NCBI GenBank assembly: GCA_017448985.1
Contig: JAFSKL010000010.1
Coordinates: 20,250-84,249, forward strand
Length of the DNA stretch: 64,000 bases
Direction of reading: 5' to 3'
DNA from: Paludibacteraceae bacterium
GTDB lineage: Bacteria > Bacteroidota > Bacteroidia > Bacteroidales > Paludibacteraceae
This document shows, in pieces, positions 299 through 53,383 of this stretch. Each line of letters opens with the position of its first letter. The stretch's first letter is position 1. The position numbers and the translations under genes are program-made. Under the pieces are notes generated by a model, which saw only the letters and a list, made by a program, of their open reading frames with translations, did not search any database and was not told the DNA's origin.

Positions 299-1405
299 TT
301 ATTTCACAATACCCTTCTCCAAATATTCGGCAAGGTTAAAGTGTTCTCGTGTCACTTTATGCATATCGTGCTTTACCATCAACTCGACCAGCTCCTCGAA
401 ACTCGTCTTTTGCGGATTCCAGCCCAGTTCCCGTTTCGCCTTACTCGGATCACCCAACAAGTTCACCACATCCGTCGGCCGGTAGAAATCCGGACTCACA
501 GCAACAACAACATCACCCTCTTTAATTTTTAATTTTGAATTTTGAATTTTTAATTCCTCCACGATTCCTTTCTCTTCCACGCCTTTGCCTTCCCAGCGCA
601 ACTCAATACCGGCATGGTGGAAAGCCAACGTCGCGAACTCACGCACCGTATGCTGCACACCCGTTGCTATGACGAAATCTTCGGGCGTATCATGCTGCAG
701 AATGAGCCACATGCACTCCACATAATCCTTGGCATATCCCCAGTCGCGCAACGAATCCAGATTGCCCAAGTACAGGCACTCCTGCAAGCCTTGCGCAATA
801 CGCGCAGCCGCCAAGGTGATCTTACGCGTCACAAACGTCTCGCCGCGACGCTCCGACTCATGGTTAAAGAGGATACCGGAACAGCAGAACATGTTGTACG
901 CCTCGCGGTACTCCTTGATGATCCAATAGCCGTATAATTTAGCCACCGCATAAGGACTGTACGGGTGGAACGGCGTGGTCTCGCTTTGCGGCACTTCCTC
1001 CACCTTGCCGTAGAGTTCGCTCGTCGAGGCCTGGTAGATCTTGCATGTTTTCTCCAGATGATTCGTCCGAACCGCCTCCAGCACACGCAGCACACCTACC
1101 GCATCCACATCGGCCGTGAACTCCGGCGCATCGAAACTGACCTGCACATGACTCTGCGCCGCCAGATTGTATATCTCATCCGGTTGCACCTGTCCTACCA
1201 ACTTAACCAGCGACATCGAGTCGCTCATGTCCGCGTAATGCAAATGAAAATGCGGTTTTCCCTCCAAATGGGCGATCCGCTCGCGAAAATCCACCGAACT
1301 ACGGCGAATAATGCCGTGGACTTCATAACCTTTTTCCAACAAAAACTCCGCCAAATAGGAGCCATCCTGACCCGTAATTCCGGTGATTAGTGCTTTTTTA
1401 GCCAT
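299..1405 (-). CDS. gmd: GDP-mannose 4,6-dehydratase
   Basis: 368 aa. [37 protein letters not shown] and the YAVAKLY catalytic motif. Contains an in-frame heptamer array at 522-556. Confidence 0.95.
522..556. repeat. Heptamer array x5 inside gmd
   Basis: TTAATTT TTAATTT TGAATTT TGAATTT TTAATTC. Encodes [12 protein letters not shown] on the minus strand. Confidence 0.9.
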
Positions 1406-1456: not shown

Positions 1457-1509
1457 TGCGCGCGTACTTTTTTTAAAAAAAGTGTACATTTTGCCCCATA
1501 AACATAAAA

Positions 1510-1537: not shown

Positions 1538-1547
1538 TTAAAATGAC

Positions 1548-1555
1548 TACCTTTG
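1548..1555 (+). promoter_or_regulatory. -7 box TACCTTTG upstream of the 2-hydroxyacid dehydrogenase gene
   Basis: TAnnTTTG match 28 nt before ATG 1583. No clear -33 TTTG. Confidence 0.5.
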
Positions 1556-1582
1556 CACTCGCAAATTATGTGCTTACGCGAA

Positions 1583-2494
1583 ATGAAGGTCGCTTTTACG
1601 ACACAATTACCCCATGAAGGCTTCCGACGACTCTCGGAACACACGCTCTACGCCTCTTTGCCGGAAGCGGATATTCTCGTCAGCACTTTCGACAAACCCG
1701 TGCCGCGTTCAATGATCGAATCGATGCCGCATCTCAAGCTCATCGCCAATTTCGGTGCGGGATTCAACAATATCGACCTGGAAGCTTGCCGTGAGCGGGG
1801 AATCCGTGTCACCAACACGCCTCAACCCGTGGTCGAGCCTACGGCGGAACTCGCTTTTGCGCTCATGATCGATGTGGCCCGTCGTGTCTCGGAGTTCGAT
1901 CGCGCCCTCAGGAACGGCATCTGTCAGCCTATGGCGGTGATGAATAATCTCAGTCACTCCTTATACGGCAAAACACTCGGTATCATCGGTCTCGGACGCA
2001 TCGGCCAGGCTCTCGCCAGACGGGCTGTAGCCAGCGGGATGCGCATCCTTTACCATAATCGCCACCGCCTGCCGGAGGACATGGAGCAACGCTTCGATGC
2101 CACTTATGTGGACTTCCAGACCTTGCTGCAGGACAGCGATTTCGTCAGTCTGAACCTGCCCTACACGCCGGAGGTACACCACCTGATCGGCCAGCCCGAA
2201 CTCGGGATGATGAAGCGTTCAGCGTACCTCATCAACACGGCACGAGGCGCACACATAGACGAACAGGCGCTCGTTGAAGCGCTGCAGAACGGCATCATTG
2301 CCGGCGCCGCACTCGATGTCTATGAGCATGAACCCGCCATTTCATCGGCACTTTTCAGCCTGCCCAATGTCGTTCTTTCGCCCCACACCGGCACAGGAAC
2401 GATGGAAGGACGAATCGCCATGTGCGAGAATGTGACGGACAATATTTTGGCTTTTTGTGCCGGTGAAATCGAACAAATGAACATCGTTTTATAA
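1583..2494 (+). CDS. D-isomer-specific 2-hydroxyacid dehydrogenase (glyoxylate/hydroxypyruvate reductase-like)
   Basis: GIIGLGRIGQALARR NAD-binding motif and a C-terminal LSPHTGTGT motif. Start moved to ATG 1583 because the -7 box TACCTTTG (1548-1555) lies inside the longer track ORF. Confidence 0.8.
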   Translation: MKVAFTTQLPHEGFRRLSEHTLYASLPEADILVSTFDKPVPRSMIESMPHLKLIANFGAGFNNIDLEACRERGIRVTNTPQPVVEPTAELAFALMIDVARRVSEFDRALRNGICQPMAVMNNLSHSLYGKTLGIIGLGRIGQALARRAVASGMRILYHNRHRLPEDMEQRFDATYVDFQTLLQDSDFVSLNLPYTPEVHHLIGQPELGMMKRSAYLINTARGAHIDEQALVEALQNGIIAGAALDVYEHEPAISSALFSLPNVVLSPHTGTGTMEGRIAMCENVTDNILAFCAGEIEQMNIVL

Positions 2495-2514
2495 ACTTTT
2501 AAATACACACTATT

Positions 2515-3063
2515 ATGAAAAAAATGATTATTTTGGTAGCAGCAACCGTAATGCTGGCCAGCTGTGGTTTCACACAGAGTAGTACAACTTCTAACACCTC
2601 CGCTCAGTCGACAGCCAAGACGACGACCTCCTCTTCAACGACCGCCCTCTCCGCAGGTCAGGGTGCCGGAGGTGCGCTGAACGCCCTCTACGCGCAGTAC
2701 AAAGCCGACGGCAACAAGTACGACTACAAGAACATGCAAAATGTGCTCAACACCGTTACCCTGCTCGCTAACTGCGAAGGTCTCAAGACCAATTACAAAG
2801 ACAAATCGTACCTCGGTGAGTTCAGCAAAGGCCTCGTAGCAGGTTCGCTCGGTCTCGTGACACAGAACACCGCACAAACCGTTACCAATAGCCTCGTCAA
2901 CATGGTAACGAGCAGCGTTTCCTCGCAGACCACTTCTGCCAAGACGCAGGAAGTAGCCAGCACCGCTGCAGGCTATGCCGATACCGCTGCCGGATACGCC
3001 AGCACCGCTGCACAGTACGCAGGCGCATTAAGTTCACTCTTAGGTGCCTTCGGTGGCAAATAA
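2515..3063 (+). CDS. Hypothetical Ser/Thr/Ala-rich lipoprotein
   Basis: MKKMIILVAATVMLASCGF signal peptide with a lipobox Cys. Low-complexity T/S/A-rich segments. No recognised domain. Confidence 0.6.
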   Translation: MKKMIILVAATVMLASCGFTQSSTTSNTSAQSTAKTTTSSSTTALSAGQGAGGALNALYAQYKADGNKYDYKNMQNVLNTVTLLANCEGLKTNYKDKSYLGEFSKGLVAGSLGLVTQNTAQTVTNSLVNMVTSSVSSQTTSAKTQEVASTAAGYADTAAGYASTAAQYAGALSSLLGAFGGK

Positions 3064-3066
3064 TCT

Positions 3067-4248
3067 ATGGATATCGTTGAGCGCTTTCTCAAGTATGTCT
3101 CGTTTTGCACAACGAGCGACGAGAATACAAATATGACGCCTTCCACGCCCGGCCAGATGGAGTTCGCGCGTTTCCTTGCCGATGAACTCAAATCGATAGG
3201 TTTGAAGGACGTTTCCCTCGATTCCAACGGGTATATCATGGCCACCTTGCCGGCCAACGACCAACGACAAATGACCAATGGCCAACGGCCTGTCATCGGC
3301 TTCATCGCCCATATGGACACCTCGCCGGATGTGAGCGGTCGCCATGTCAAACCGAGTATCGTCAAGGCCGAAGAGCGCGATTTCATCGATGCGCGTTATG
3401 CGGGGCAGGAGGTCATCGTCACCGACCAGACCACTCTCCTTGGAGCCGACGACAAAGCCGGTATAGCCGAGATCGTCACGGCCATGGAGTACCTTGTGCA
3501 GCATCCGGAGATCGAGCACGGCAAAGTGCGTATCGGCTTCACACCGGACGAGGAGATAGGTCAGGGAGCCGACCATTTTGATGTGAAGGCTTTCGGCTGT
3601 GACTTCGCCTACACCATGGACGGAGGAGCAATTGGTGAGTTGGAGTTCGAGAACTTCAACGCGGCTTCGTGTAAGATTCATGTTCACGGAGTGAATGTTC
3701 ACCCCGGGTCAGCGTATCACAAGATGCAGAACTCGATGCGTATAGCTTACCAGTTAGCCGTTATGCTACCTCGCTGGGAGACGCCGGAGCACACACAGGG
3801 ATACGAAGGTTTCTACCACCTCATCGGCATGAACGGCACCGTGGAAGAGACCACGCTCAGCTATATCATTCGTGACCATGACAAAGCGCGTTTCGAGAGC
3901 CGCAAACGGGAACTGGAGCACCTCGTCCGCAAGGTGAATCGTGAGTACGGAGACGGAACGGCGGAGATCGAGATACGCGATCAATATTATAACATGCGCG
4001 AGAAGATAGAGCCCGTCATGCACATCATCGAACTCGCCAAGAGTGCGATGGAATCGGTGGAAGTGACACCTGTCATCAAGCCTATTCGTGGCGGAACGGA
4101 TGGCGCAAGGCTCTCCTTCGAGGGACTACCCTGCCCCAATATCTTTGCCGGAGGCGAAAACTTCCACAGCCGATACGAGTATCTCCCGATTCCATCGATG
4201 AAAAAAGCCATGGAAGTGATCCTCCAAATCGTTCAAATGGCTAAATGA
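3067..4248 (+). CDS. pepT: Peptidase T (tripeptide aminopeptidase, M20B)
   Basis: 393 aa. N-terminus [21 protein letters not shown], plus IAHMDTSPD and [11 protein letters not shown] metal-ligand motifs typical of PepT. Confidence 0.9.
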
Positions 4249-4260
4249 TTCAATAAATAA

Positions 4261-4290
4261 TAAAATGGTAAATGACCATATGGTAAATCT
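4261..4290. repeat. Degenerate AAATGGT/AAATGAC array at the gcvT start
   Basis: atggtaaatgacCATatggtaaat. A near-identical 24-mer occurs at the patatin gene start (5409-5432). Confidence 0.6.
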
Positions 4291-5380
4291 CAAGACAACT
4301 CCGTTTACGGATATTCACATTGCGTTAGGCGCAAAAATGGCAGAGTTTGCCGGTTTCAATATGCCTATTCAGTACCCTACTGGCATCAATCAGGAGCACA
4401 TGATCGTTCGCGAAGGTGTCGGCGTGTTTGATGTCAGCCACATGGGCGAGTTCTGGGTGAAAGGCGAGAAAGCGCTGGACTTCCTGCAGTATATCACCAC
4501 CAACGACCTGTCGGTCATACCGGCAGGCAAGGCGCAGTACACCTGTATGCCCAACGGCAAAGGCGGTATCGTGGATGATCTGATCATCTATAAATACTCC
4601 ACCACCAAGTACCTCATGGTAGTCAATGCCGGCAATATAGACAAGGACTGGGCGTGGGTCAACCAAATTAAAAATGAAAAATTAAAAATTAAAAATTGGG
4701 GAGATCTCTCTTTGGACAATGCCTCGGACCGTTACGGCCAATTGGCGGTGCAGGGACCGAAGGCGGTGGAACTGCTTCAACTGCTCACCGACCTGGACCT
4801 CAAGTCCATCGACTATTATGCGTTCCGCGAGTGGAGTTTTGCGGGCGTACCGGGTGTCATCCTGTCGAACACCGGTTATACCGGTGCCGGAGGCTTCGAG
4901 CTCTATTTCCCTGCCGACAAAGGGATACAGATCTGGAACGCGCTCTTCGAAGTGGGCAAGCCGTTTGGCCTGGCTCCTATCGGTCTCGGTGCCCGTGACA
5001 GCCTGCGTTTGGAGAAATGGTACTGTCTCTACGGCCACGATATCGACGATACCACCTCACCGCTCGAAGCAGGTCTCGGATGGATCACCAAGCTCGATGC
5101 CAAGGAGTTCATCGACCGCGATTTCCTCAAACAGCAGAAAGCGGAAGGCGTCCAACGCAAACTGGTACACTTCGAGTGCCAGGAGCGTGCTATCCCGCGG
5201 AACGGCTACGACATATGCGATGAATCCGGCAATAATATAGGTCATGTCACCTCCGGCATCATGCTGCCCAACACCAAAACGGGCATCGGAATGGGCTATG
5301 TGCAAACACCCTTTGCCAAGAAAGAGAACATCATCTATATCCGCATCCGCGAGAAACTGATTCCCGCCAAAATTGTCTAA
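4265..5380 (+). CDS. gcvT: Glycine cleavage system aminomethyltransferase T
   Basis: [28 protein letters not shown] and FDVSHMGEF motifs. An alternative start is ATG 4280, because the first 5 codons come from the AAATGGT-type repeat. In-frame heptamer array at 4665-4699. Confidence 0.9.
4665..4699. repeat. Heptamer array x5 inside gcvT
   Basis: AAATTAA AAATGAA AAATTAA AAATTAA AAATTGG. Encodes [11 protein letters not shown]. Confidence 0.9.
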
Positions 5381-5398
5381 ATGCCTCAATGGTTAAAT

Positions 5399-5439
5399 AA
5401 ATGACCAAATGGTAAATGACAAAATGGTAAATAAAAATG
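5399..5439. repeat. Degenerate 7/8-mer AAATGNN array at the patatin gene start
   Basis: AAATGACC AAATGGT AAATGACA AAATGGT AAATAAA AATG. Confidence 0.65.
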
Positions 5440-6359
5440 TAGCGCTTGTACTGGGTTCCGGCGGAGCGCGCGGTTTGGCACATATAGGTGCCATCGAGGC
5501 GCTCGAAGAACGCGGCTATACCATCACGAGTATAGCCGGTTGCTCGATGGGTTCTATCATCGCGGGCATGTATGCCGCAGGACAGTTGAAGCAAGCCAAG
5601 GAGTGGTTCCTGCGTGTCGATAAGCAGCTCATTCTCCGCATGCTGGATGTCAACCTGCTCAGCGGCAACTCGCTGGTCAAGGGGCAGCGTATCATCCGAG
5701 AGCTGGAGAAAGTGGTGCCTGACCGTCCGATGGAGCACCTCAACATACCGTGTACCATCGTGGCTTCGGATATGATCCGCACCGAGGAAGTGGTGTTCCG
5801 TTCAGGCAGCCTCTTTGAGGCTGTACGCGCGTCTATCAGTATCCCGCTGTTCTTTCAGCCCGTTCAGATAGGCCAACGCCTGCTCATCGACGGAGGCATC
5901 CTCAATCCCCTACCCTTACACGCCGTTCAACGTACCGAAGGCGACATATTGGTAGCCATGGACATCAGCGGAAAGGATACCATGCCCGTAGAGAACAAAA
6001 TCCCCGAATCCATCGATGTGGAAGGCAAGTTGGCTTACCTCAAAAAGACGGGGATTCCGGTGCCCAAATCATGGGAGAAACAGATTCGTCAATTCGGAAA
6101 AAGTCTCGATGAATACAGGGTAAAACGGGCAAACGACCTGGGTCGTAATGTCAATTTCTTCGGTTTGCTCGACCGGATGAGCGATATGCAGATCCAGCAG
6201 AACACCCTGCTCGCTCTGCGGCTCACGCCTCCGGATGTACACGCGGTGATGCGCCAGTACGCGTACAATACCTTTGATTTCGATAAGGCCGAAGAGATCA
6301 TCGAACAAGGGTATCGAATCATGAATGAGGCGCTCGAGAAATACGAAATTTCGCAATAA
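5409..6359 (+). CDS. Patatin-like phospholipase
   Basis: LVLGSGGARGLAHIGAIEALEE (GGxRG), GCSMGS (GxSxG) and DGG motifs. Alternative start at ATG 5424. Confidence 0.85.
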   Translation: MVNDKMVNKNVALVLGSGGARGLAHIGAIEALEERGYTITSIAGCSMGSIIAGMYAAGQLKQAKEWFLRVDKQLILRMLDVNLLSGNSLVKGQRIIRELEKVVPDRPMEHLNIPCTIVASDMIRTEEVVFRSGSLFEAVRASISIPLFFQPVQIGQRLLIDGGILNPLPLHAVQRTEGDILVAMDISGKDTMPVENKIPESIDVEGKLAYLKKTGIPVPKSWEKQIRQFGKSLDEYRVKRANDLGRNVNFFGLLDRMSDMQIQQNTLLALRLTPPDVHAVMRQYAYNTFDFDKAEEIIEQGYRIMNEALEKYEISQ

Positions 6360-6414
6360 AATGTTTCAAATGGCGTAAAAAGGCACAAAAAATGATAAAA
6401 AAATGCTTTTTTGC

Positions 6415-6445
6415 TTTGTTATATGAAATAATTTTTGTACTTTTG
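6415..6445 (+). promoter_or_regulatory. Promoter of the acyl-CoA ligase gene
   Basis: TTTG, 19 nt spacer, TACTTTTG. Confidence 0.6.
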
Positions 6446-6470
6446 CACTCGATTTTGGTTTAATTGTATT

Positions 6471-8120
6471 ATGGCAACAAAACATTATTTATCGTACCTG
6501 GAGGAAACGATCGCGAAGCGTTGGGACAGTCTGGCAATGGCGGACTATGACGGTGAAAATCGATATACCTATGCCGATTTGGCGGCACAGATTGCCAAAC
6601 TGCATGTCACTTGGCAGCAAGTGGGCATCAAGGAGGGTGACAAGATAGCTCTCTGCGGGCGTAACTGCGCCAACTGGGGTCTGCTCTTTCTGGCTGCCGC
6701 GAGCTACAAGGCGGTGGTAGTCAGTATCCTGCCCGACTTCACGGCGGACGGTATCTACTCGCTCGTGGACCACTCCGATGCCTTGCTGCTCTATGTGGGT
6801 CCGAATGTGAAGAAGAAGATCGACCCCTCGCAGATGAAAAGCCTCCGCGCCATCATTTTTATGGACGACATGTCCATCGTGGCATCGGACGACAAGTTCC
6901 GCAAGGCCTACGAAGGCGTGGACAAAGCGTTCCTGAAGGCCTATCCGGATGGTGTCAAGGCCTCCGACCTGCATTTCCCCACCGATAACTACGACGATAT
7001 AGCCGTTATCAACTATACCTCCGGCTCTACGGGCAATCCGAAAGGCGTGATGCTGACCCACCTCAACCTGAGCGGCAATGTGGAGTTCGGTCAGTCCCGT
7101 ATCCCGCACGGCAAGGGAGACAAGGTGCTGTCCATGCTGCCGATAGCGCATATGTTCGGACTCATGTTCGAGTTCCTGTATCAGGTGTGCGACGGTGCCG
7201 AGGTCTATTTCCTCACGCAGGCGCCTACCCCCACCGTGCTGATGAAAGCGTTCGCGCAGGTGAAGCCGTTCATGATCCTGACGGTGCCTCTCGTGATCGA
7301 GAAGATCATCAAGAAAGGTGTGCTGCCCAAGATCAGCAGCCCTGCCATGCGCATCATGTGGCGTACCCCGTTCCTCAAGAATGTGATCCGCCGCAAGGTG
7401 AAAGAGGGTCTGGACAAGACCTTCGGCGGTCAGTTGCGCTTCCTCATCATCGGCGGTGCAGCCCTCAACGGCGAGGTGGAGCAAGTGCTTCACGACATCA
7501 AGTTCCCCTATTGCGTGGGCTACGGTATGACCGAGTGCGGACCGCTCATCAGTTACGAGGACTGGTACCGCTATGCGTTCCACAGCTGCGGTAAAGAGCT
7601 GCCGCAATGCCATGTGCGCATCGACTCCGAAGACCCCACCGGCAAGGACGGCGAGATACAGGTGAAGGGTATCAATGTGATGAAAGGCTATTACAAGAAC
7701 GACGAGGCGACCAAGGCTGCGTTCACACCGGACGGTTGGATGCGTACCGGCGACCTCGGCGTGCTCGACAAAGAGGGCAATATATACATTCATGGTCGCT
7801 CGAAGAACATGATCCTCGGTCCTTCGGGACAGAACATCTACCCCGAGGAATTGGAGGACAAGCTCAACTCGATGCCTTGCGTCATTGAGTCGATCGTGGT
7901 GGATCGTGACCATAAGCTCGTGGCGCTCGTCTTCCCTGATACGACCGCGGACGGCAAGAAGGCCCTGGGCAACAAGACCCTCACCCAGCAAATGGAAGAG
8001 AATCGTGCGGCGGTGAACAAAGAGCTGCCGCAATATAGCCAAATCAGTGCAATCGAATTAGTGGCTTCGGAGTTCGAGAAGACCCCGAAACGCTCCATCA
8101 AGCGGTATTTGTACCAATAA
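6471..8120 (+). CDS. AMP-dependent synthetase / long-chain-fatty-acid--CoA ligase
   Basis: YTSGSTGNPKGVMLTH AMP-binding motif and GWMRTGDLG motif. Start set at ATG 6471, downstream of promoter box 6438-6445. Confidence 0.85.
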   Translation: MATKHYLSYLEETIAKRWDSLAMADYDGENRYTYADLAAQIAKLHVTWQQVGIKEGDKIALCGRNCANWGLLFLAAASYKAVVVSILPDFTADGIYSLVDHSDALLLYVGPNVKKKIDPSQMKSLRAIIFMDDMSIVASDDKFRKAYEGVDKAFLKAYPDGVKASDLHFPTDNYDDIAVINYTSGSTGNPKGVMLTHLNLSGNVEFGQSRIPHGKGDKVLSMLPIAHMFGLMFEFLYQVCDGAEVYFLTQAPTPTVLMKAFAQVKPFMILTVPLVIEKIIKKGVLPKISSPAMRIMWRTPFLKNVIRRKVKEGLDKTFGGQLRFLIIGGAALNGEVEQVLHDIKFPYCVGYGMTECGPLISYEDWYRYAFHSCGKELPQCHVRIDSEDPTGKDGEIQVKGINVMKGYYKNDEATKAAFTPDGWMRTGDLGVLDKEGNIYIHGRSKNMILGPSGQNIYPEELEDKLNSMPCVIESIVVDRDHKLVALVFPDTTADGKKALGNKTLTQQMEENRAAVNKELPQYSQISAIELVASEFEKTPKRSIKRYLYQ

Positions 8121-8131
8121 TACCGCACCCC

Positions 8132-8158
8132 ACGCTATGGTGTGAGTTTCCATAGCGT
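8132..8158 (+). terminator. Hairpin after the acyl-CoA ligase gene
   Basis: ACGCTATGG, 9-nt loop, CCATAGCGT (9-bp perfect stem). Weak T tract. Confidence 0.45.
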
Positions 8159-10981: not shown

Positions 10982-12793
10982 ATGAAGAATATACGGAATT
11001 TTTGTATCATTGCGCATATAGACCACGGCAAGAGTACGCTGGCGGACAGGATGTTAGAGTTGACGGGTACCGTCGATGTTCGCAGCATGGAAGCACAGGT
11101 GCTCGACGACATGGACCTGGAGAAAGAACGGGGCATCACGATAAAGAGCCATGCGATACAGATGAATTATAAGTATAGGGGTGACGGGTTACCGGTTACG
11201 GGTGACGGGATGTTCACTCTTAATCTCATCGATACTCCGGGGCATGTGGATTTCAGTTATGAAGTGAGCCGGAGTATAGCGGCTTGCGAGGGAGCGGTGT
11301 TAGTTGTAGATGCGACGCAAGGCGTTCAGGCGCAGACGATATCGAACCTGTACATGGCCATCGAGCACGACCTCGAGATCATTCCCGTGATCAACAAATG
11401 CGACATGGACAATGCGATGCCGGAGCGTGTGGAGGACGAGATAATAGACCTGTTGGGTTGCAAGCGCGAGGAGATACTGCGTTGTTCGGCGAAGACGGGC
11501 GAGGGCGTGACGGAGATATTAGATGCCATCGTGGAGCGTATCCCGGCACCGGTGGGCGACCCCGACGCACCGCTGCAATGCCTCGTCTTCGACTCTGTAT
11601 TCAACTCGTTCCGCGGTATCATAGCCTACTTCAAAGTGGTGAACGGGACGATGCACACGGGTGACCGCGTGCGGTTTGTGAACACGGGCAAGGAGTACGA
11701 CGCGGACGAGATAGGTATCCTCAAATTAGACATGAGCCCTCGCAAGGAGATAAGCGCCGGCAATGTGGGGTACATCATCTCGGGCATCAAGACCTCGACC
11801 GAGGTCAAAGTGGGCGACACGATCACGCATGTGGCGCGACCGTGCGAGGCGGCGATAGACGGTTTCGAAGAAGCCAAGCCGATGGTGTTCGCGGGCGTCT
11901 ATCCGATAGAGACGGAAGACTACGAGGACCTGCGGGCATCGTTAGAAAAGCTGCAGCTGAACGACGCGAGTCTGACGTTCCAGCCGGAGAGTTCGATGGC
12001 GTTGGGCTTCGGTTTCCGCTGCGGGTTCCTCGGGTTACTGCACATGGAGATAGTGCAGGAGCGTCTGGACCGCGAGTTCGACATGGACGTTATCACCACG
12101 GTGCCGAATGTGTCGTACAATGTCTATACCAAAGACGGCAACATGGTGGAGGTACACAACCCCGCGGGAATGCCGGACCTGACGGAGATAGACCGCATTG
12201 AGGAGCCGTACATCCGCGCGAGCGTCATCACCGTGGCCGATTACATAGGGCCGATCATGACGCTGTGTTTGGGCAAGCGCGGCGAACTGGTCAAGCAGGA
12301 GTACATCAGCGGTAACCGTATGGAGCTGCTGTTCGACATGCCGTTAGGCGAGATAGTGATCGATTTCTACGACAAGCTCAAGTCGATCAGCAAGGGCTAC
12401 GCGTCGTTCGACTGGCACATGAACGGCTTCCGTCCGTCCAACCTCGTCAAGCTGGACATCCTGCTGAACGGCGAGCAAGTGGACGCACTCTCTACCCTCA
12501 CCCATCGCGACAATGCTACGGACTTCGGCCGGCGCATGTGCGAGAAACTCAAAGAGTTGCTACCTCGCCAACAGTTCGACATAGCGATACAGGCGGCGAT
12601 AGGTGCGAAGATCATTGCGCGGGAGACCGTGAAGCAGGTGCGCAAGGATGTGTTGGCCAAGTGTTACGGCGGTGATGTGAGCCGTAAGCGCAAGCTGCTC
12701 GAGAAGCAGAAACGCGGCAAGAAGCGGATGAAACAAATAGGCAATGTGGAAGTGCCGCAAAAAGCCTTCCTCGCTGTTTTGAAACTGGATTAG
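10982..12793 (+). CDS. lepA: Translation elongation factor 4
   Basis: [33 protein letters not shown], and C-terminal [23 protein letters not shown]. In-frame heptamer array at 11179-11209. Confidence 0.95.
11179..11209. repeat. Heptamer array x4 inside lepA
   Basis: GGGTGAC GGGTTAC CGGTTAC GGGTGAC GGG. Encodes [10 protein letters not shown]. Confidence 0.85.
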
Positions 12794-12802: not shown

Positions 12803-12830
12803 AATGAATAATGATTAATGAATAATGAAT
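12803..12830. repeat. AATGAAT-family heptamer array x4 (left flank of the four-helix-bundle gene)
   Basis: AATGAAT AATGATT AATGAAT AATGAAT. Confidence 0.9.
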
Positions 12831-12847
12831 ATCTCGCTGAATGTAAC

Positions 12848-13237
12848 ATGGAAGAAACTAAAATATACAATTTAGGCATATTAGAAGATAAAACATATTC
12901 GTTTGCGCTACGAATCATCAAAGCACATAAATATCTAACAGACAAGAATGAATATATTCTCTCAAAACAACTCCTTCGTTCAGGAACTTCCATTGGGGCA
13001 AACTGTCGAGAGGCCACATTCGCTCAAAGTAAGCAAGACTTTGTTAACAAATTAAGTATAGCTTTAAAAGAGACAAACGAAAGTATCTATTGGATAGAAC
13101 TATTGCATGATTCCGGATTTATTACCGATGATAGCTTTGATTCCATTCATGCTGATGGCACAGAAATATTAAAACTATTAATCGCTATCATTAAAACATC
13201 AAAAAGTAATATCCAAAAAATTAAAGATATTCATTAA
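12848..13237 (+). CDS. Four-helix-bundle protein (23S rRNA intervening-sequence protein family)
   Basis: SIGANCREATFAQSKQDFVNKLSIALKETNESIYWIELL is the family signature. Very AT-rich. Flanked by inverted heptamer arrays. The longer start at 12818 lies inside the repeat. Confidence 0.8.
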   Translation: MEETKIYNLGILEDKTYSFALRIIKAHKYLTDKNEYILSKQLLRSGTSIGANCREATFAQSKQDFVNKLSIALKETNESIYWIELLHDSGFITDDSFDSIHADGTEILKLLIAIIKTSKSNIQKIKDIH

Positions 13238-13266
13238 TCATTATTAATTATTAATTATTCATTAAT
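13229..13266. repeat. Inverted AATGAAT-family array x5 (right flank of the four-helix-bundle gene)
   Basis: ATTCATT AATCATT ATTAATT ATTAATT ATTCATT AAT. This is the reverse complement of the left-flank family. Confidence 0.9.
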
Positions 13267-16240: not shown

Positions 16241-16243
16241 TTT

Positions 16244-16271
16244 AATGAATAATTAATAATGAATAATGAAT
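16244..16271. repeat. AATGAAT-family array x4
   Basis: AATGAAT AATTAAT AATGAAT AATGAAT. Nearly identical to 12803-12830, including the following ATCT. Confidence 0.9.
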
Positions 16272-16307
16272 ATCTTTTTATGTGAATATGCTTTCGTCTC
16301 ACGAGAT

Positions 16308-16335
16308 AATCATTAATCATTAACCATTGATAATT
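16308..16335. repeat. Inverted AATGAAT-family array x4, overlapping the ftsZ stop
   Basis: AATCATT AATCATT AACCATT GATAATT. Confidence 0.85.
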
Positions 16336-17587
16336 ACTTTCTTCTAATCCATCCGAACGGTCGGTGAGCAGGTTGCTCCGGCTGTTCCTCCGCTTTGGGT
16401 TCGTCCTCGACGGTAATGACCACCTCTTCGGCAGAGGTCGATTCGGGCCGTTCCTTCGTCTGACGAGGCAGCGTGTCACCCCCTTCGGCAAACAGCGTCT
16501 CGCTCAGGTCGATCAGCTGTGCCTTCTCGTCCTCTAAGGGTTTGGGCACCTGCGGCGGGTAGTTGGCATCGATAGCCTCGGCTATCGTTTTCTTGCCTTC
16601 CACCTCTTCCTCGGATGGCAGCCCGTCGACCTTGTATCCCGTGGCAATGACCGTGACGCGCACTTCCTCGCCCAGCGTCTCGTCGATGGAAGCGCCCCAC
16701 TGCACTTCGATGTCCTCGCCCACTTCCTGGACGAAATCGTTGATCTGGTCGATCTCCTCCATGACGATGGCGTGCTCGGTGGAGCAGTAGAACTGCAGCA
16801 GGATTCGTTCGGCGCCGTGCACATCGTTGGTGTTGACCAGCGGCGAGTTGAGGGCATCGTTGATGGCATTGGTGATACGCCGTTCGCCGGAAGCCCGACC
16901 GATGTTCATGATGGCTACTCCACCCTTGCGGAGTGTGTTGCGCACATCGGCAAAGTCCGTATTGATGTACCCGGGCACCGTGATGATCTCCGCAATCGCT
17001 CTGGCTGCGTTGGCCACCACATCGTCCGACTTGCTGAACGCATTGAGCAGGTTGAGTTCCGGGTAGATCTGTTTGAGTTTCTCATTATTAATAATGAGAA
17101 GCGCGTCCACATGCTTGGCCAGACGAGCCACGCCTGTCATTGCTTTCTCTATCTTCTTCTTGCCCTCGAACGCAAACGGGATCGTGACGATACCAACGGT
17201 CAGTATGCCCATTTCCTGCGCCACCTCCGCCACGACGGCCGAAGCACCGGTACCCGTACCGCCACCCATTCCGGCGGTGATGAACAGCATCTGCGTGCCA
17301 TCATTGAGCGCCTCGCGTATATGCTCGCGGCTCTCCTCGGCGTACTGACGCGCGGTCTCGGGATCGCCGCCGGCACCCAGACCCGGACCCAATTGCAGCT
17401 TACTCGGTACCGACGATTTGATGAGCACCTGGCGATCGGTGTTGCAAACGAGGAAGGTCACATCTTTCAGACCCTGACGGTGCATGTAGTTGACCGCATT
17501 GCAGCCGCCTCCACCTACGCCGATCACTTTGATGATACTATCCTCTGTCAAGCCTTCCAAAGGCAGTGTAATTAAATTATCTTCCAT
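16334..17587 (-). CDS. ftsZ: Cell division protein FtsZ
   Basis: GVGGGGCNAVN and GMGGGTGTGA tubulin signature motifs. Confidence 0.97.
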   Translation of the reverse strand: MEDNLITLPLEGLTEDSIIKVIGVGGGGCNAVNYMHRQGLKDVTFLVCNTDRQVLIKSSVPSKLQLGPGLGAGGDPETARQYAEESREHIREALNDGTQMLFITAGMGGGTGTGASAVVAEVAQEMGILTVGIVTIPFAFEGKKKIEKAMTGVARLAKHVDALLIINNEKLKQIYPELNLLNAFSKSDDVVANAARAIAEIITVPGYINTDFADVRNTLRKGGVAIMNIGRASGERRITNAINDALNSPLVNTNDVHGAERILLQFYCSTEHAIVMEEIDQINDFVQEVGEDIEVQWGASIDETLGEEVRVTVIATGYKVDGLPSEEEVEGKKTIAEAIDANYPPQVPKPLEDEKAQLIDLSETLFAEGGDTLPRQTKERPESTSAEEVVITVEDEPKAEEQPEQPAHRPFGWIRRK

Positions 17588-24866: not shown

Positions 24867-26156
24867 ATGTTTTTGTATTTTCTATTGATACGAATCGCGG
24901 CGCTGTTCGGGCACAAGAAAGCCCGTGCGTTGGTGGAAGGCCAGAAGTCAGCATTCAGCTTTGAGCCGTCAGTATTCAGCGGCTGCATATGGATTCATGC
25001 GGCTTCGGCAGGCGAGTTCGAGCAGTCGAGGACGCTGATTGAGAGGATAAAGGACGCTTCGCTACAGGACGGCGCAAGCGCCTACAAAGAAAAGGTTGTT
25101 GTCACATTCTTTAGTCCGTCGGGATACAAGGCACATAAGGGGAACGAATTGTTGGACGGCGTGCTGTACCTGCCCTTTGCCACGCGGCGCAATGCGCGCA
25201 AGTTCATCGAGGCCCTGCAACCGAAAATGGCCATCTTCGTCAAATACGAGTTCTGGCCCGCCTATATACGCGAACTGAAGAAACGCGATATCCCCATTTA
25301 CAGCATCTCGGCTATCTTCCGTCCGAAGCAGTATTTCTTCCGGTGGTGGGGCAAAGGTCAACTGCGCATACTGCGTGCTTTCACGCATATCTTCGTGCAG
25401 GACGAGGCCTCGCGACGGCTGTTGGCGGAGCACGGCGTGCATAACGCAAGCGTGGCAGGAGACACGCGATTTGACAGAGTCAAACAGACCGCTTGCGCTG
25501 TAAGACCGGCTTCGCCTGTAGGATTGCAGCCCATAGCAGAGTTTGCGGAAGGGTGCAAGAGGGTGTTGGTGGCAGGAAGCACATGGCCGGAGGATGAGGC
25601 GCTATTAGCGCAATTAAAAATTAAAAATGAAGAATTAAAAATTATTCTTGTGCCGCACGAGATAAACGAGGCACATCTGCATTTCATTTTCAATCTGTTC
25701 AAGGGACGGATGGTGAAGTACAGTTCAATTGAAAATGGACAAAGGAAAATGGAAAATGGGATTGTTAGCCGGCGGAACATACTGCGGCACGCGGAGGTGA
25801 TGGTGGTGGATACGATCGGTCTGTTGAGTTCGATCTATCAGTTCGGGCAGGTGGCTTATGTAGGCGGCGGCTTCGGCGAAGGGATTCACAACACCATCGA
25901 AGCGGCGGTGTATGGTGTGCCGGTGATTTTCGGGCCTAACTACCAACGATTTCGCGAGGCACAAGGACTGATTGATGCCGGTGCAGGCAAGAGCGTGCGC
26001 AAATACAATGAGTTTGAAGAGGCGGTGGAGACAGCTTTTGCGCAGCATGAAGACTTAGGCGCCAAAGCGGCGGAGTATGTGGAGAGCGAGTTGGGAGCGA
26101 CTGCAAAAATCTGCGAGCAGATTTTTGCAAATGGAAAATGGAAAATGGAAAATTGA
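24867..26156 (+). CDS. waaA: 3-deoxy-D-manno-octulosonic acid (Kdo) transferase
   Basis: IWIHAASAGEFEQSRTLIERI and a C-terminal GGGFGEGIHNTIEAAVYGVPVIFGP motif. Start set downstream of promoter 24801-24832. Three heptamer arrays, the last of which provides the C-terminus and stop. Confidence 0.85.
   Translation: MFLYFLLIRIAALFGHKKARALVEGQKSAFSFEPSVFSGCIWIHAASAGEFEQSRTLIERIKDASLQDGASAYKEKVVVTFFSPSGYKAHKGNELLDGVLYLPFATRRNARKFIEALQPKMAIFVKYEFWPAYIRELKKRDIPIYSISAIFRPKQYFFRWWGKGQLRILRAFTHIFVQDEASRRLLAEHGVHNASVAGDTRFDRVKQTACAVRPASPVGLQPIAEFAEGCKRVLVAGSTWPEDEALLAQLKIKNEELKIILVPHEINEAHLHFIFNLFKGRMVKYSSIENGQRKMENGIVSRRNILRHAEVMVVDTIGLLSSIYQFGQVAYVGGGFGEGIHNTIEAAVYGVPVIFGPNYQRFREAQGLIDAGAGKSVRKYNEFEEAVETAFAQHEDLGAKAAEYVESELGATAKICEQIFANGKWKMEN
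25612..25646. repeat. Heptamer array x5 inside waaA
   Basis: AATTAAA AATTAAA AATGAAG AATTAAA AATTATT. Encodes LKIKNEELKII. Confidence 0.9.
25723..25760. repeat. Heptamer array x4-5 inside waaA
   Basis: TGAAAAT GGACAAA GGAAAAT GGAAAAT GGG. Encodes IENGQRKMENG. Confidence 0.85.
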
Positions 26157-26175
26157 AAATTGAAAATTTAGAATT
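26126..26175. repeat. Heptamer array x7 forming the waaA C-terminus, its stop and the whole waaA-hisS spacer
   Basis: GGAAAAT x3, TGAAAAT x2, TTAGAAT. The stop TGA arises at the first TGAAAAT unit. The hisS ATG follows 1 nt after the array. Confidence 0.95.
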
Positions 26176-39263: not shown

Positions 39264-41747
39264 ATGAATATATCGTACAATTGGTTAAAACGCTATATCG
39301 CTTTGCCCGATGAAGCAGAGCAAGTAGCAAAAATTCTTACTTCCATCGGTTTGGAAGTAGGCACAGTGGAAACCGTAGAGTCGATCCGCGGCGGGTTGAA
39401 AGGCCTCGTAGTAGGCGAAGTGCTGACCTGTGTACCCCACCCTAATTCGGACCACTTACATCTGACGACCGTTAACATCGGTGAGCCAAAGCCCATCCAG
39501 ATCGTTTGCGGAGCACCCAATGTGGCAGCAGGACAGAAAGTGATTGTGGCTACTATCGGAACCGTACTCTATGACGGCGACCAGTCGTTTACCATCAAGA
39601 AAGGCAAGCTGCGCGGCGAGGACAGCTGCGGAATGATCTGCGCAGAAGACGAGATAAGCGTCGGCACGGACCATGCGGGTATCATCGTACTGCCTGCCGA
39701 CACGCCCGTCGGAATGAAAGCTGCCGACTATTACCACATAGAGAACGACACGATCATCGAGGTCGATATCACGCCCAACCGCTCGGATGCCGCTTCGCAC
39801 TATGGCGTAGCGCGCGACCTGTACGCCTATTATCAGGTACACGGGCAGAAAGTGGCATTGACCAAACCTTCGGTCGAAGCCTTCCAAATCGACAGCAACG
39901 ACCTGCCGATTAGCGTCTCGATCGATGCGCCGGAAGCGTGTCCGCGTTATACGGGCGTGAGCATCCAAGGCGTAGAGATCAAAGAGTCGCCGGAGTGGCT
40001 CAAGAACAGCCTCACGGCCATTGGTCTGCGGCCCATCAACAATGTGGTCGATGTGACGAACTTCGTACTGCACGAGTGCGGACAAGCCCTGCACGCTTTT
40101 GATGCCGACAAGATAAAAGGCCACGAGATACATGTGCGTTTGGCCCACAAGGGCGAGAAATTCGTCACCTTGGACGGCGTAGAACGCGAGATGAACGAAC
40201 GCGACCTGATGATAGCCAATGCCGACGAAGCCATGTGTATAGCCGGTGTCTTCGGCGGTCTGGAGAGCGGCGTGACCGAGAACACAAAGAATGTGTTCCT
40301 CGAGAGTGCCTATTTCGATCCTGTCTTCATCCGCAAGACCAGCCGTCGGCATCAGTTACAGACCGATGCATCGTTCCGTTTCGAGCGTGGTACGGATCCC
40401 AACAACACACCCTATGTGCTCAAACGCGCAGCCCTGCTCATTCAGGAAGTGGCAGGAGGAAAAGTCAGCATGGACATCACCGACCAGGGACAGACATCCT
40501 TCGCCCCCTGGCCTGTGACCATCGACATCCAGCGCGTCAACTCGCTGATAGGTAAAGCCATTGGTGAAGATACGATAGAGACCATTCTCACCGCTCTTGA
40601 GATCAAGATCGTTGAGAAATTGGAAAATGGACAATGGAAAATTGAAGTACCCCGTTACCGCGTGGATGTACAGCGTGAGTGCGATGTGGTAGAGGACATC
40701 CTGCGGCTCTACGGCTACGACAATGTGGAGTTCCCTGAGAAACTGAACACGAGTCTTGCCTACGGCATCAAGCCCAATCCCGAACAGTTGCGTCGCCGCA
40801 TAGCCGAACAACTGACGGCACAGGGCTTCAACGAGATACTCAACAACTCGCTGACCAAAGTGTCGTACTACGAGCCGCTCCAACAACTGCCCCTGGCCAA
40901 CTGCGTTCGGATCATGAATCCGCTCAGTCAGGACCTCGGCGTGATGCGTCAGACATTGCTTTTCGGCGGACTCGAATCGATAGCCCGTAACGCCAACCGC
41001 AAGAACAGCGACCTCAAGTTCTACGAGTTCGGAAACTGCTATCACTATGATAAGTTGAAAGTTGAAAGTTTAAAGTTGAAAGGACTCGATGCCGATCCGT
41101 TGGCTGCATACTCCGAAGAGCCGCATTTCGGCTTGTGGCTGACCGGTAACAAGACCGCACAGAGTTGGGTACTGCGCGAAGAGAAGACGACCTTCTACCA
41201 ACTGCGCGCATATGTGAACAATGTGCTCGCTCGCTTGGGCGTGAACCTCGACAAAGTGACCGTAGAGCGTCTGGAGAACGAGTTGTTCTCGGATGGTCTG
41301 GTACTCAAAGCCGCTAACGGCAAAGCGCTCGGCTACATCGGCATCGTGGCGCGCAATGTGCTCAAGACATTCGACATCGACCAGGAGGTCTATTACGCCG
41401 ACCTCGACTGGAACCAGCTACTCAAGCAGAACAAACAGTTCAAGGCCGTCATCAGCGACCTGCCCAAGTATCCGGAAGTGAAGCGAGACTTTGCGCTGCT
41501 CGTCGACAAGAGCATCGAGTTCGCGGACCTCGCGCGCGCTGCTTTCGAGACCGAACGCAAACTGCTCAAGAATGTCTATCTGTTCGATGTCTATGAGGGC
41601 AAGAACCTCGAGGCTGGCAAGAAGAGCTATGCGTTGTCGTTCATCCTGCAAGATGCGGAGAACACGCTCAAAGACACACAGATAGAGAACATCATGAACC
41701 GCCTGAAGGCGACCTTCGAACAGAAATTCAATGCTACCCTCCGCTGA
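39264..41747 (+). CDS. pheT: Phenylalanine--tRNA ligase beta subunit
   Basis: MNISYNWLKRYI start, tRNA-binding domain, B3/4 and B5 domains, C-terminal FDVYEGK..SYALSF. Two in-frame heptamer arrays. Confidence 0.95.
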   Translation: MNISYNWLKRYIALPDEAEQVAKILTSIGLEVGTVETVESIRGGLKGLVVGEVLTCVPHPNSDHLHLTTVNIGEPKPIQIVCGAPNVAAGQKVIVATIGTVLYDGDQSFTIKKGKLRGEDSCGMICAEDEISVGTDHAGIIVLPADTPVGMKAADYYHIENDTIIEVDITPNRSDAASHYGVARDLYAYYQVHGQKVALTKPSVEAFQIDSNDLPISVSIDAPEACPRYTGVSIQGVEIKESPEWLKNSLTAIGLRPINNVVDVTNFVLHECGQALHAFDADKIKGHEIHVRLAHKGEKFVTLDGVEREMNERDLMIANADEAMCIAGVFGGLESGVTENTKNVFLESAYFDPVFIRKTSRRHQLQTDASFRFERGTDPNNTPYVLKRAALLIQEVAGGKVSMDITDQGQTSFAPWPVTIDIQRVNSLIGKAIGEDTIETILTALEIKIVEKLENGQWKIEVPRYRVDVQRECDVVEDILRLYGYDNVEFPEKLNTSLAYGIKPNPEQLRRRIAEQLTAQGFNEILNNSLTKVSYYEPLQQLPLANCVRIMNPLSQDLGVMRQTLLFGGLESIARNANRKNSDLKFYEFGNCYHYDKLKVESLKLKGLDADPLAAYSEEPHFGLWLTGNKTAQSWVLREEKTTFYQLRAYVNNVLARLGVNLDKVTVERLENELFSDGLVLKAANGKALGYIGIVARNVLKTFDIDQEVYYADLDWNQLLKQNKQFKAVISDLPKYPEVKRDFALLVDKSIEFADLARAAFETERKLLKNVYLFDVYEGKNLEAGKKSYALSFILQDAENTLKDTQIENIMNRLKATFEQKFNATLR
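40612..40647. repeat. Heptamer array inside pheT
   Basis: GAGAAATT GGAAAAT GGACAAT GGAAAAT TGAAGTA. Encodes EKLENGQWKIEV. Confidence 0.85.
41054..41081. repeat. Heptamer array x4 inside pheT
   Basis: GTTGAAA GTTGAAA GTTTAAA GTTGAAA. Encodes KLKVESLKLK. Confidence 0.9.
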
Positions 41748-51739: not shown

Positions 51740-53383
51740 TTACTTCAAAGTGTAGTGTTTATGATTCCAAGCTGTTGATTTGATTCTGGGCAGCGTGATG
51801 ATACCCTCTTTGGGTTTCTTGCCGGCCAAGAACAATGCATATGCCACCGCCGCCATATCGTCAGATTTAGCAGCCGCAGGCTGAGCATTTTCAATTTTCA
51901 ATTTTCCATTTTCCATTTCAAGCCCCTTGCGCTTCGCAAGGTCTTGATTGAACTGCTCCTTCGCCAAGCCGCTCTTGTACTCGCGGTACTGCTTGTCATG
52001 CATCGCGAACTCGAACAGCTCTTCGTCATCCTGACCGCGATCCCAACCGAGTTCTTTCATCTCTTTAATGTACTGCGGCAGTACATCCGGATAGAGTTTC
52101 TGCGGGTCGTCGGTATAGAACTCGAAGCCTTTCTCTTTGGCCAACTCGACGATTTCGGGAGCCAGCTCTCCGGGCAGTTTGCCGGCCTTGCCGAGGATCA
52201 TGCCCCACATAGCCGGATCCATACGCGTGAACGGTTTCTCGCCCATCGAACGGCTGAACAGGTTCATCAGCGCCGCGTTCTTCACATATTGGCTGAACGG
52301 CGTCACCAGACACGGCGTGCCGAGCATCGGCCATATACGCTGTACCTCGTCGAACAACTGCACGAGCAACTCATCCTCGCTCAGTTCCTTCTCGCCTTTC
52401 TTCTTCAGGTTCGCATTGATGGCAGCATGCATACCTTTGAGGTCTGCCATCAGACTACCCATCATGCCGCCGGGAAGACCGCAGCCGACTAACAGCGAAC
52501 TCATCAGCGCGTTCTTCGGGTCAATCCAATAGCCGAGGAAATCGTCGATAAACTCCTGCGTCAGGCTCCGCGCCTCCATGTAGGCTTTCATGTTGATGTC
52601 CTTCACCAGGAATCCCGCGTCGCGCAGCATCGCCTGAATAGTGATCACATCCGGATGTACCTTGCCCCAACTGAGCGGCTCCATCGCCACATCCAGTACA
52701 TCGCCGCCGGCTTTGGCCACTTCGAGCATCGAAGCCACGCTGAAACCGGGACCGCAATGTCCGTGGTACTGAATGATGATATCCGGATGTTTCTCCTTGA
52801 TGGCTGCCACAATCACGCCTAACATATGCGGACGACCGATACCGGCCATGTCCTTGAGGCATATCTCTTGCGCACCGCCTGCAATCAGCTGTTCCGCTAA
52901 GTTGATATAGTATTCCGCCGTATGCACTTTCGAATAGGTGATACACATCGTCGCTTGTGCGGTCATACCTGCCTCTTTCGCCCACTTGATGGACGGGATA
53001 ATGTTCCGCGGGTCATTCAGACCGCAGAAAATACGGGTGATGTTCGTACCCTGCGCATGCTTCACTTTGTACATCAGTTTGCGTACATCTGCGGGCACAG
53101 GGTTCATGCGTAGCGCATTTAGACCGCGATCCAGCATATGCGTTTGGATACCAGCCTCGTTGAACGGCTTGCAGAAGGTACGAACCGCCTGATTGGGGTT
53201 CTCGCCGTACAACAGGTTCACCTGCTCACTCGCGCCGCCGTTCGTCTCCACGCGGTCAAAACAACCCATGTCAATAATCACAGGCGCTACACGCGCCAAC
53301 TGATCTTTCCGCGGCACGTACTTACCACTACTCTGCCACATGTCGCGGTAAACAAGACTAAATTGAATCTCTTTCTTTCCCAT
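51740..53383 (-). CDS. Carboxyltransferase subunit of the oxaloacetate decarboxylase / transcarboxylase 5S type (no biotinyl domain visible)
   Basis: HMGL-like TIM barrel (RDMWQS, LKDMAGIG, QYHGHCGPG) followed by a PYC_OADA-like region. No AMKM biotinylation motif. In-frame heptamer array at 51896-51930. Confidence 0.75.
   Translation of the reverse strand: MGKKEIQFSLVYRDMWQSSGKYVPRKDQLARVAPVIIDMGCFDRVETNGGASEQVNLLYGENPNQAVRTFCKPFNEAGIQTHMLDRGLNALRMNPVPADVRKLMYKVKHAQGTNITRIFCGLNDPRNIIPSIKWAKEAGMTAQATMCITYSKVHTAEYYINLAEQLIAGGAQEICLKDMAGIGRPHMLGVIVAAIKEKHPDIIIQYHGHCGPGFSVASMLEVAKAGGDVLDVAMEPLSWGKVHPDVITIQAMLRDAGFLVKDINMKAYMEARSLTQEFIDDFLGYWIDPKNALMSSLLVGCGLPGGMMGSLMADLKGMHAAINANLKKKGEKELSEDELLVQLFDEVQRIWPMLGTPCLVTPFSQYVKNAALMNLFSRSMGEKPFTRMDPAMWGMILGKAGKLPGELAPEIVELAKEKGFEFYTDDPQKLYPDVLPQYIKEMKELGWDRGQDDEELFEFAMHDKQYREYKSGLAKEQFNQDLAKRKGLEMENGKLKIENAQPAAAKSDDMAAVAYALFLAGKKPKEGIITLPRIKSTAWNHKHYTLK
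51896..51930. repeat. Heptamer array x5 inside the carboxyltransferase gene
   Basis: CATTTTC AATTTTC AATTTTC CATTTTC CATTTCA. Encodes [12 protein letters not shown] on the minus strand. Confidence 0.9.

Follow-up and report, generated by a model that had tools for sequence, protein, structure and literature searches.

Heptamer arrays within gcvT, waaA and gmd

Tandem heptamer arrays were analysed in a stretch of 64,000 nucleotides (hereafter the window) from contig JAFSKL010000010.1 of a rumen Paludibacteraceae bacterium, with particular attention to three AAATTAA-type arrays located inside gcvT, waaA and gmd, in which the codons that would read TAA in a perfect repeat are occupied by sense codons. 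The G+C content of the window is approximately 52%, and its proteins match those of uncultured Paludibacteraceae (Bacteroidales). The three host genes and their arrays, as located by Tandem Repeats Finder (TRF) and homology, are as follows.

4265..5380, plus strand: gcvT (aminomethyltransferase), host gene; homologues PF01571 and PF08669, E = 4e-87 to PDB 1YX2
4665..4699, plus strand: AAATTAA array in gcvT, 4.7-5 units; TRF, frames checked by hand
24867..26156, plus strand: waaA (Kdo transferase), host gene; homologues PF04413
25612..25646, plus strand: AATTAAA array in waaA, encoding LKIKNEELKII; TRF, frames checked
25727-25759, plus strand: AATGGAA array in waaA, from the array list
26129..26168, plus strand: AAATGGA/AAATTGA array at the 3' end of waaA; one of its units supplies the waaA stop codon TGA (26154-26156)
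299..1405, minus strand: gmd (GDP-mannose 4,6-dehydratase), host gene; PF16363, E = 8e-147 to PDB 1DB3
521..556, minus strand: AATTAAA array in gmd; TRF, frames checked

A recheck of units and frames found all three arrays as described in an initial annotation of this DNA. The gcvT array (4665-4699) consists of the units AAATTAA, AAATGAA, AAATTAA, AAATTAA and AAATTGG, so that the would-be in-frame TAA codons read GAA (4676-4678) and TGG (4697-4699), and all three out-of-frame TAA triplets are unbroken. This array is identical in strain L082 and is shared with locus L001. In waaA, the units of the array at 25612-25646 are AATTAAA, AATTAAA, AATGAAG, AATTAAA and AATTATT; the sole would-be in-frame TAA is GAA (25629-25631), and a further change of AAA to GAA at 25632-25634 bears no relation to a stop codon. 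Strains L083-L086 retain the waaA array, L086 with a single substitution. The single would-be in-frame TAA of the gmd array is TCA (plus-strand 536-538). The initial annotation had also counted a CAA in gmd (plus-strand 542-544) among the replaced stop codons, but this codon stands where a perfect tile has AAA, not TAA.

These arrays belong to a large population. TRF returned 33 period-7 rows in the window as opposed to 1.0 in 20 dinucleotide shuffles, and periods 8, 9 and 11 are likewise enriched 6-8 times. The main families of the window (AAATGGA, AAATTGA, AAATTAA and CAATGGA) are mutual one-base neighbours.

Stop avoidance given an open reading frame

As 7 and 3 are coprime, each triplet of the unit falls in frame once in any run of three units (21 bases). 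An open reading frame (ORF) that runs through at least three stop-bearing units must therefore have the in-frame stop triplet broken once per 21 bases; given the open frame, variants at the in-frame stops have a probability of 1 and are no coincidence. The initial annotation had suggested looking for depletion of stop-forming units in the actual reading phase. Such depletion is indeed found in the 18 stop-bearing arrays interior to genes, in which none of the 17 in-frame would-be stops is intact as compared with 45/52 of those out of frame, but it is worthless as evidence since ORF calling guarantees it: an ORF is by definition without in-frame stops, and the test cannot fail. The consensus units on the sense, antisense and non-coding strands were compared instead.

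Depletion of arrays and of stop-bearing units in genes

The comparison set comprised the window and 80 loci around gcvT of related genomes (approximately 1.38 Mb, 1.44 Mb in total), which derive mostly from rumen and gut metagenomes. Arrays were detected by TRF, and those of at least 2.9 units were kept in the census. Genes were called with an ORF and 3-periodic Markov caller and corrected after Pfam checks; the first version of the caller missed murC and left four arrays wrongly intergenic, which was mended via the Pfam check, and ORF 12818-13237 was also missed, so that some classification error remains.

The census yielded 223 arrays, with 71 interior to genes, 75 at gene edges and 77 intergenic. 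Their density is 0.057 per kb in coding DNA as compared with 0.40 per kb in non-coding DNA (0.79 if edge arrays are included), which makes arrays 7-14 times rarer in genes; under uniform placement, approximately 193 interior arrays would be expected rather than the 71 observed. Stop-bearing consensus units are found on the sense strand of 18/71 interior arrays (25%), on the antisense strand of 30/71 (42%) and on 89/154 strands of intergenic arrays (58%). Letter-shuffled units would be stop-bearing in 49% of cases, from which the sense strand differs at p = 7e-5; the difference between the sense and non-coding strands has p = 7e-6. The initial annotation had supposed that arrays enter or expand without regard to coding and that only stop-free variants survive in essential genes, and had asked for unit composition in coding and intergenic arrays to be compared. 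A selective filter on coding arrays is borne out by their rarity in genes together with the deficit of stop-bearing units on the sense strand.

The deviations from perfect repetition are concentrated at the positions concerned. In the 16 of the 18 stop-bearing interior arrays that lack indels, mismatches to the perfect tile occupy 18/45 positions within in-frame stop codons and 15/445 positions elsewhere. The replacement codons are single-base neighbours of a stop codon in 13 of 15 cases, including four changes of TAA to GAA, four of TGA to TTA and two of TAA to TCA.

At gene edges, the stop codon of the gene lies inside 58 of the 75 arrays, as for waaA in 26129-26168 and murC in 19692-19717. 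An unbroken in-frame stop simply terminates the gene, an outcome that is tolerated only close to the C-terminus. Among interior arrays, the sense strand is the A-rich one 49 times as opposed to 11, with a bias to the hydrophilic residues S, K, Q, N and E. The A-rich sense bias thus constitutes a second filter, towards hydrophilic peptides.

The arrays as DNA-level objects

Pairs of arrays of the same family (at most one mismatch in any rotation or on either strand) make up 22% of pairs within a locus and 6.6% of pairs between loci. Interior arrays that share a family with the non-coding arrays of their own locus number 19, as compared with 10.9 expected. The arrays are DNA-level objects and not protein repeats, because genome-specific families are common to coding and non-coding DNA and because the out-of-frame positions stay perfect (the 45/52 above). 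The median array length is approximately 4.4 units whether the arrays are coding, at gene edges or intergenic, and in the window and the 80 loci a length of six units or more is uncommon.

Turnover between close strains

Comparison with close strains reveals that many arrays differ in unit number, unit variants or family. The murC arrays that enter into this comparison are the following.

19700-21145, minus strand: murC, with four interior arrays at 19848-19873, 20166-20197, 20364-20396 and 20903-20929, all stop-free on the sense strand
19692-19717, minus strand: fifth murC array, containing the murC stop codon; TRF

The identity of murC was confirmed by three Mur-ligase Pfam domains, and its four interior arrays occur in both orientations. 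This load, with four arrays inside the gene and the stop codon in a fifth, is unusually high for an essential cell-wall enzyme.

Strain L082 is approximately 97% identical to window positions 1-8200 at the nucleotide level. At the gmd site it carries a wholly different array, AAAGTAC with alternating 7- and 8-nucleotide units, and several unit-variant changes are observed in the CCAACGA array of an M20 peptidase gene and in intergenic arrays. Between the window and strains L083-L086 (97.4-98.5% identity over window 14800-36200), nearly all differences are indels at arrays. Unit-number differences of 7 or 14 nucleotides occur between genes or at gene ends, at 17605, 19691, 26141 and 32048, and a different family or period is found at the same site in murC (20364-20396), in hisS (26844-26863) and in an intergenic gap (17593-17625). 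Unit variants also shift between strains at 1508 and 26129. At the swapped sites of L082-L086 (murC, hisS, gmd 521-556 and 17593-17625), even the periods differ, with units of 8 or of 7 and 8 nucleotides.

In L085 (4806-6201), the loss of an 8-nucleotide unit at the murC array leaves two called ORFs (205 and 255 amino acids), and L086 has a run of N near the site homologous to 20335-20365. The split of murC in L085 reflects either real slippage heterogeneity or a failure of assembly at the repeat.

Array sites are permissive loops

The initial annotation regarded the arrays as insertions, a description that holds only in part. The GcvT site varies in length among 120 homologues, the short form being WVNEHNTFGVSLENAS. 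The window loop is 8 residues longer than that of outgroup relatives and of B. subtilis GcvT (1YX2), in which a gap lies opposite the array, but it is only 3 residues longer than that of the nearest relatives without an array. Other GcvT lineages have peptides at this site from other heptamers, for example NGQWTMDN from GACAATG and KVESQKSK from an AAGTCGA-type unit (AAGTCGA in L053).

The GMD site ranges among homologues from EEKGI-DVKTGKVV in 357-residue forms to loops with 1-3 copies of HNSQCTM, SHQPSEV or KVQSD, and the copy number proceeds in steps of 21 or 15 bases (7 or 5 residues); KVQSDKVQS and HNSQCTMHN are further loop peptides of homologues that translate other heptamers. The gmd loop of the window is of approximately the same length as that of E. 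coli GMD. In WaaA, both array sites are variable linkers, and the AAATTAA array brings no lengthening relative to most homologues. All three sites are permissive loops of variable length among homologues.

The host genes had further been called essential, which is too strong: gcvT and gmd are not known to be generally essential. The better cases of essential genes in the window are murC, pheT and hisS.

Proposed origin and order of events

The arrays arise and turn over at the DNA level, most likely by slipped-strand mispairing, with unit-level conversion and recombination between alleles assisting. The majority persist in intergenic DNA or at the ends of genes, whose stop codon they often provide; the minority that persist within genes occupy surface loops or linkers in which a change of length is tolerated. 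Coding arrays have either stop-free units (approximately 75%) or a one-base variant at each in-frame position (approximately 25%). The pattern very probably reflects the survivors of selection, which acts against nonsense and frameshift alleles and less strongly against hydrophobic inserts, rather than a repair process. For the generator itself, the combination of slipped-strand mispairing, unit-level conversion and allele recombination has about an even chance of being correct, as judged from the strain differences and the established behaviour of simple-sequence repeats.

Several observations weigh against this reading. The central coincidence, that variants fall exactly at in-frame stops, is logically forced and lends no independent support. 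The depletion of stop-bearing units on the sense relative to the antisense strand is marginal (p = 0.05), and non-coding units are richer in A+T (73% vs 61% in the first classification), which explains part of the contrast between coding and non-coding arrays. The gene calls come from an ORF and Markov caller that missed at least two real genes, and the TRF score threshold favours stop-bearing coding arrays with few other mismatches. The loci are metagenome-assembled genomes, in which repeats may be mis-assembled, as the run of N at one array in L086 illustrates. Finally, slippage alone leaves the genome-specific families, the uniform copy number of approximately 4.4 and the whole-array family swaps unexplained.

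The order of events bears on the statement of the initial annotation that TAA codons had been replaced, which presumes that a perfect array came first and is overstated. Since the genome is haploid, a nonsense allele of a gene that is needed could not last until it was repaired; the stop-free variant has to be older than the perfect units or to have arisen with them. At the position of GAA in gcvT, relatives that lack an array already show Asp/Asn-Glu, which would favour the variant having come first.

In one alternative, the arrays grew in place around older codons, such as an original GAA in gcvT, and nothing was replaced at all. This account is a serious possibility that falls short of an even chance. 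It is favoured by the impossibility of a lasting nonsense intermediate and by the array-less GcvT relatives (88-92% identity), which read VNKI(K/R)DEKFKDADLK and can be aligned residue by residue with the window, with Glu kept at the GAA position. Moreover, L015 and L076 encode nearly the same GcvT loop peptide with a lag-7 identity of 0.55 (array-like) and 0.26 (non-array), respectively, and one homologous loop can therefore exist as either kind of DNA. On the other side, a search for residual period 7 in the common GcvT loop of relatives gave a lag-7 identity of 0.24-0.32, no different from other lags, so that decay and formation of the array are both compatible with the data, and the unit families match those of the non-coding arrays. 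The L081 gmd (95% nucleotide and 99% protein identity) keeps the AAATTAA array, but its in-frame TAA is broken as GAA, as opposed to TCA in the window; it takes two steps to pass from one codon to the other, and one of the two possible routes leads via TAA. The two alleles fit an array that was reshaped repeatedly, each round being followed by selection of a stop-free version, better than they fit growth around one older codon.

A second alternative attributes the strain differences to alleles imported by homologous recombination, with the stop-free variants inherited from the donor. Flank identity is 85-89% at gmd (250-750) as compared with approximately 97% elsewhere, and the flanks of hisS have 11/100 and approximately 50/100 mismatches in the adjacent 100 nucleotides; recombination with divergent alleles therefore explains part of the array swaps. 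In addition, the AAAGTAC-type arrays at the gmd and hisS sites of the ERZ27298160 strain (L082, L085) are also present in L002, L013, L016 and L023. However, flank divergence is only mildly raised at murC, and copy changes of plus or minus 7 nucleotides and unit-variant shifts occur without flank divergence at 1508, 17605, 19691 and 26141. Import would also shift the question to the donor lineage without answering it, and as the explanation of the strain differences it is less likely than not.

An improbable reading is that the arrays are not passive products of slippage: a genome-specific and sequence-directed process would write and rewrite them, such as ectopic gene conversion between dispersed arrays or some templated form of synthesis. 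Such rewriting would account for the possession of its own families by each genome, for the approximately 4.4 units in all classes and for the exchange of families at the same site between strains of 97-98.5% identity. If it were true, the loops of essential enzymes such as MurC, WaaA, HisS, PheT and GcvT would be continually re-diversified as cassettes, and the stop-avoiding variants would be the trace of selection on each rewrite.

Selection on the protein is a very improbable explanation. On this account a repeated charged peptide such as KLKIKNE is needed, 21 bases correspond to a 7-residue heptad and the period in the DNA is a by-product. The A-rich sense bias, with its hydrophilic S, K, Q, N and E, would agree with it, as would the recurrence of like peptides (KLKVESLKLK in pheT and at the GcvT site of P0023). 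However, unit identity reaches synonymous and out-of-frame positions, the arrays are only approximately 1.5 heptads long, and orthologues lack the peptide or have unrelated ones. A protein-level repeat or coiled coil was rejected, as the units also occur in non-coding DNA and antisense in genes (murC 20903).

That the host ORFs are pseudogenes or mis-called, or the arrays assembly artefacts, is scarcely credible in spite of the split murC of L085 and the run of N in L086, since the three host proteins match their families over the full length on both sides of the array, identical proteins occur on independent contigs (P0121 on 6, P0241 on 9), and the gcvT and waaA arrays are unchanged or differ by one substitution in independent assemblies.

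Other arrays in the window

Further heptamer arrays in genes and in intergenic DNA are listed below.

41052..41082, plus strand: AAGTTGA array in pheT, encoding KLKVESLKLK; in-frame TGA changed to TTA (41070-41072)
11179..11209, plus strand: GGGTGAC array in lepA; in-frame TGA changed to TTA (11189-11191)
51887..51918, minus strand: AAATGGA/AAATTGA array in a carboxylase-domain gene (51740-53383); both TGA triplets out of frame
12803..12831, no strand assigned: AATGAAT array with both TGA and TAA in each plus-strand unit; located between lepA and a small PF05635 gene
13228..13264, no strand assigned: TATTCAT/TAATTAT array overlapping the stop codon of ORF 12818-13237 and ending 2 nucleotides before the start codon at 13267
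16243..16336, no strand assigned: two AATGAAT-type arrays (16243-16272 and 16307-16336), both situated between the same two minus-strand genes

The pheT and lepA arrays are two further stop-avoiding cases, absent from the initial annotation, which had placed the AATGAAT family exclusively between genes. All four arrays of this type (12803, 13228, 16243 and 16307) do lie outside gene interiors (hypergeometric p = 0.026), but two of them overlap the start or stop of the gene at 12818-13237. The product of this ORF belongs to PF05635 (23S rRNA-intervening-sequence protein family, E = 2e-25); both its start and its stop lie within AATGAAT-type arrays, the called ATG (12818) being inside the array at 12803..12831. 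It was also correctly stated that GGAAAAT is stop-free on both strands and the commonest family inside genes, the latter when one-base variants are included.

Repeats of other periods were observed as well. An 11-nucleotide array of TTTAACCACGG (approximately 3 units, 27521-27554) and its reverse complement ACCGTGGTTAA (approximately 3.5 units, 50570-50607) lie 23 kb apart, both intergenic, and constitute a second dispersed repeat family with another period. The intergenic arrays at 30106-30143 and 34077-34112 have an 8-/16-nucleotide period and are built on ACTAGT-containing units (AACTAGTC TACTAGTC; ACTAGTTGACTAGCCG), with a palindrome in each unit. At the left edge of the window, 11-nucleotide arrays are formed by TCATCGGATGC (4.4 units, 227-274) and TTTCCACCAGA (2.7 units, 192-221), and the unit variants of the TCATCGGATGC array at 227-274 differ in strain L082. 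Within waaA, positions 25478-25522 contain a non-heptamer repeat with units of approximately 17-21 nucleotides that end in CTGTAAGACC and have small hairpin-like cores; this repeat is 39 nucleotides longer in L085, and a GAAAGAGT-type array takes its place in L086. The stretch at 8000-11000 has a G+C content of approximately 45%, as compared with 52% elsewhere, and contains an Acyl_transf_3 gene (9102-10217) and two ORFs without a Pfam match; it may have been acquired horizontally.

Relation to known repeat systems

Long simple-sequence repeats (LSSR; Mrazek, Guo and Shah 2007), as presented in PMC4679880 and PMC4692102, have units of 5-11 nucleotides, with 7 the commonest period in many bacteria. 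The same two papers describe a sporadic phylogenetic distribution, enrichment in non-coding DNA, a disfavouring in coding DNA of units that are not a multiple of 3, and polymerase slippage as the proposed origin. The arrays of the window are likewise tandem heptamers far above chance, rarer in ORFs and polymorphic in unit number between close strains, and they are heptameric simple-sequence repeats of the LSSR kind. They differ in that they occur in uncultured rumen and gut Paludibacteraceae at approximately 0.5 array per kb and that many lie in housekeeping genes, with five in murC, three in waaA, two in pheT and others in hisS, lepA, gcvT and gmd.

Membership in the named heptamer families (TAACTGA, STRR1-3 and GGGNATC) was rejected by unit sequence. 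The TAACTGA direct repeats (MacGregor 2015, PMC4679880) of marine Beggiatoaceae, cyanobacteria and some Bacteroidetes come as sets of 2-6 units. Most of these lie between genes, and frequently they are found either a few bases ahead of a start codon or across a stop codon. Forward repeats have stops in all three frames and so overlap ORF ends only, and reverse repeats occur in ORFs at protein peripheries; two sets are mentioned in P. propionicigenes (PMC4679880). That system has one dominant unit, whereas dozens of unit families per clade are found here, and the persistence of stop-bearing units in ORFs via a point variant at each in-frame position is a case not described in PMC4679880. No TAACTGA tandem is present in the window or in any of 86 loci. 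Within the literature collection searched, MacGregor 2015 was the sole hit on heptamer repeats for Paludibacter or Bacteroidales, and no report of the phenomenon in Paludibacteraceae came up.

The GGGNATC and GGGGA(T/C)T heptamers of Xanthomonas and Nostoc (Rehm et al. 2015, PMC4692102) are genome-wide, under-represented in coding DNA, of approximately four units and often less than 50 bp from ORF ends. Those units are G-rich, and the G-quadruplex was offered as the reason for four units; the arrays described here are A/T-rich and without G-tracts, yet their median is approximately 4.4 copies. This reason cannot apply here because the units are A/T-rich. Tandems of CCCCAGT, TTGGTCA and CAACAGT (cyanobacterial STRR1-3) and of GGGAATC and GGGGA(T/C)T are absent from the window, and a single TTGGTCA x2 is found across all loci.

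Contingency loci, such as those with Haemophilus tetranucleotide repeats (PMC2651432, PMC3315296), have long perfect tracts near the 5' end of surface or lipopolysaccharide genes. The likeness to the arrays consists in a unit that is not a multiple of 3, a location inside ORFs and the possibility of a frame shift by slippage, with L085 murC as one possible case. A phase-variable contingency locus was nevertheless rejected: the arrays have 4-5 imperfect units each, are kept in frame and occupy loops in the middle of enzymes with metabolic and housekeeping roles. No strain in the comparison departs from the window in the length of the gcvT or waaA array, the differing gmd alleles both preserve the frame, and the sole frame-breaking case, L085 murC, may be an assembly artefact.

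Significance

The three-frame argument for heptamers is already in print (PMC4679880), and stop avoidance as such adds little to it. The setting is what deserves attention: approximately one heptamer array per 2 kb of window, with many in the core genes murC, pheT, hisS, waaA and lepA, at whose array sites orthologues, even those of close strains, carry different arrays, a cassette-like turnover at fixed loops. For annotators of metagenome-assembled genomes, the arrays are a warning, as such repeats leave genes split, open gaps in scaffolds and make start and stop codons uncertain. For biology, this clade provides a natural system in which to follow how microsatellite-like mutation feeds variation in the length and sequence of loops in conserved enzymes, and how strongly the filters of nonsense, frameshift and hydrophobicity shape the survivors.

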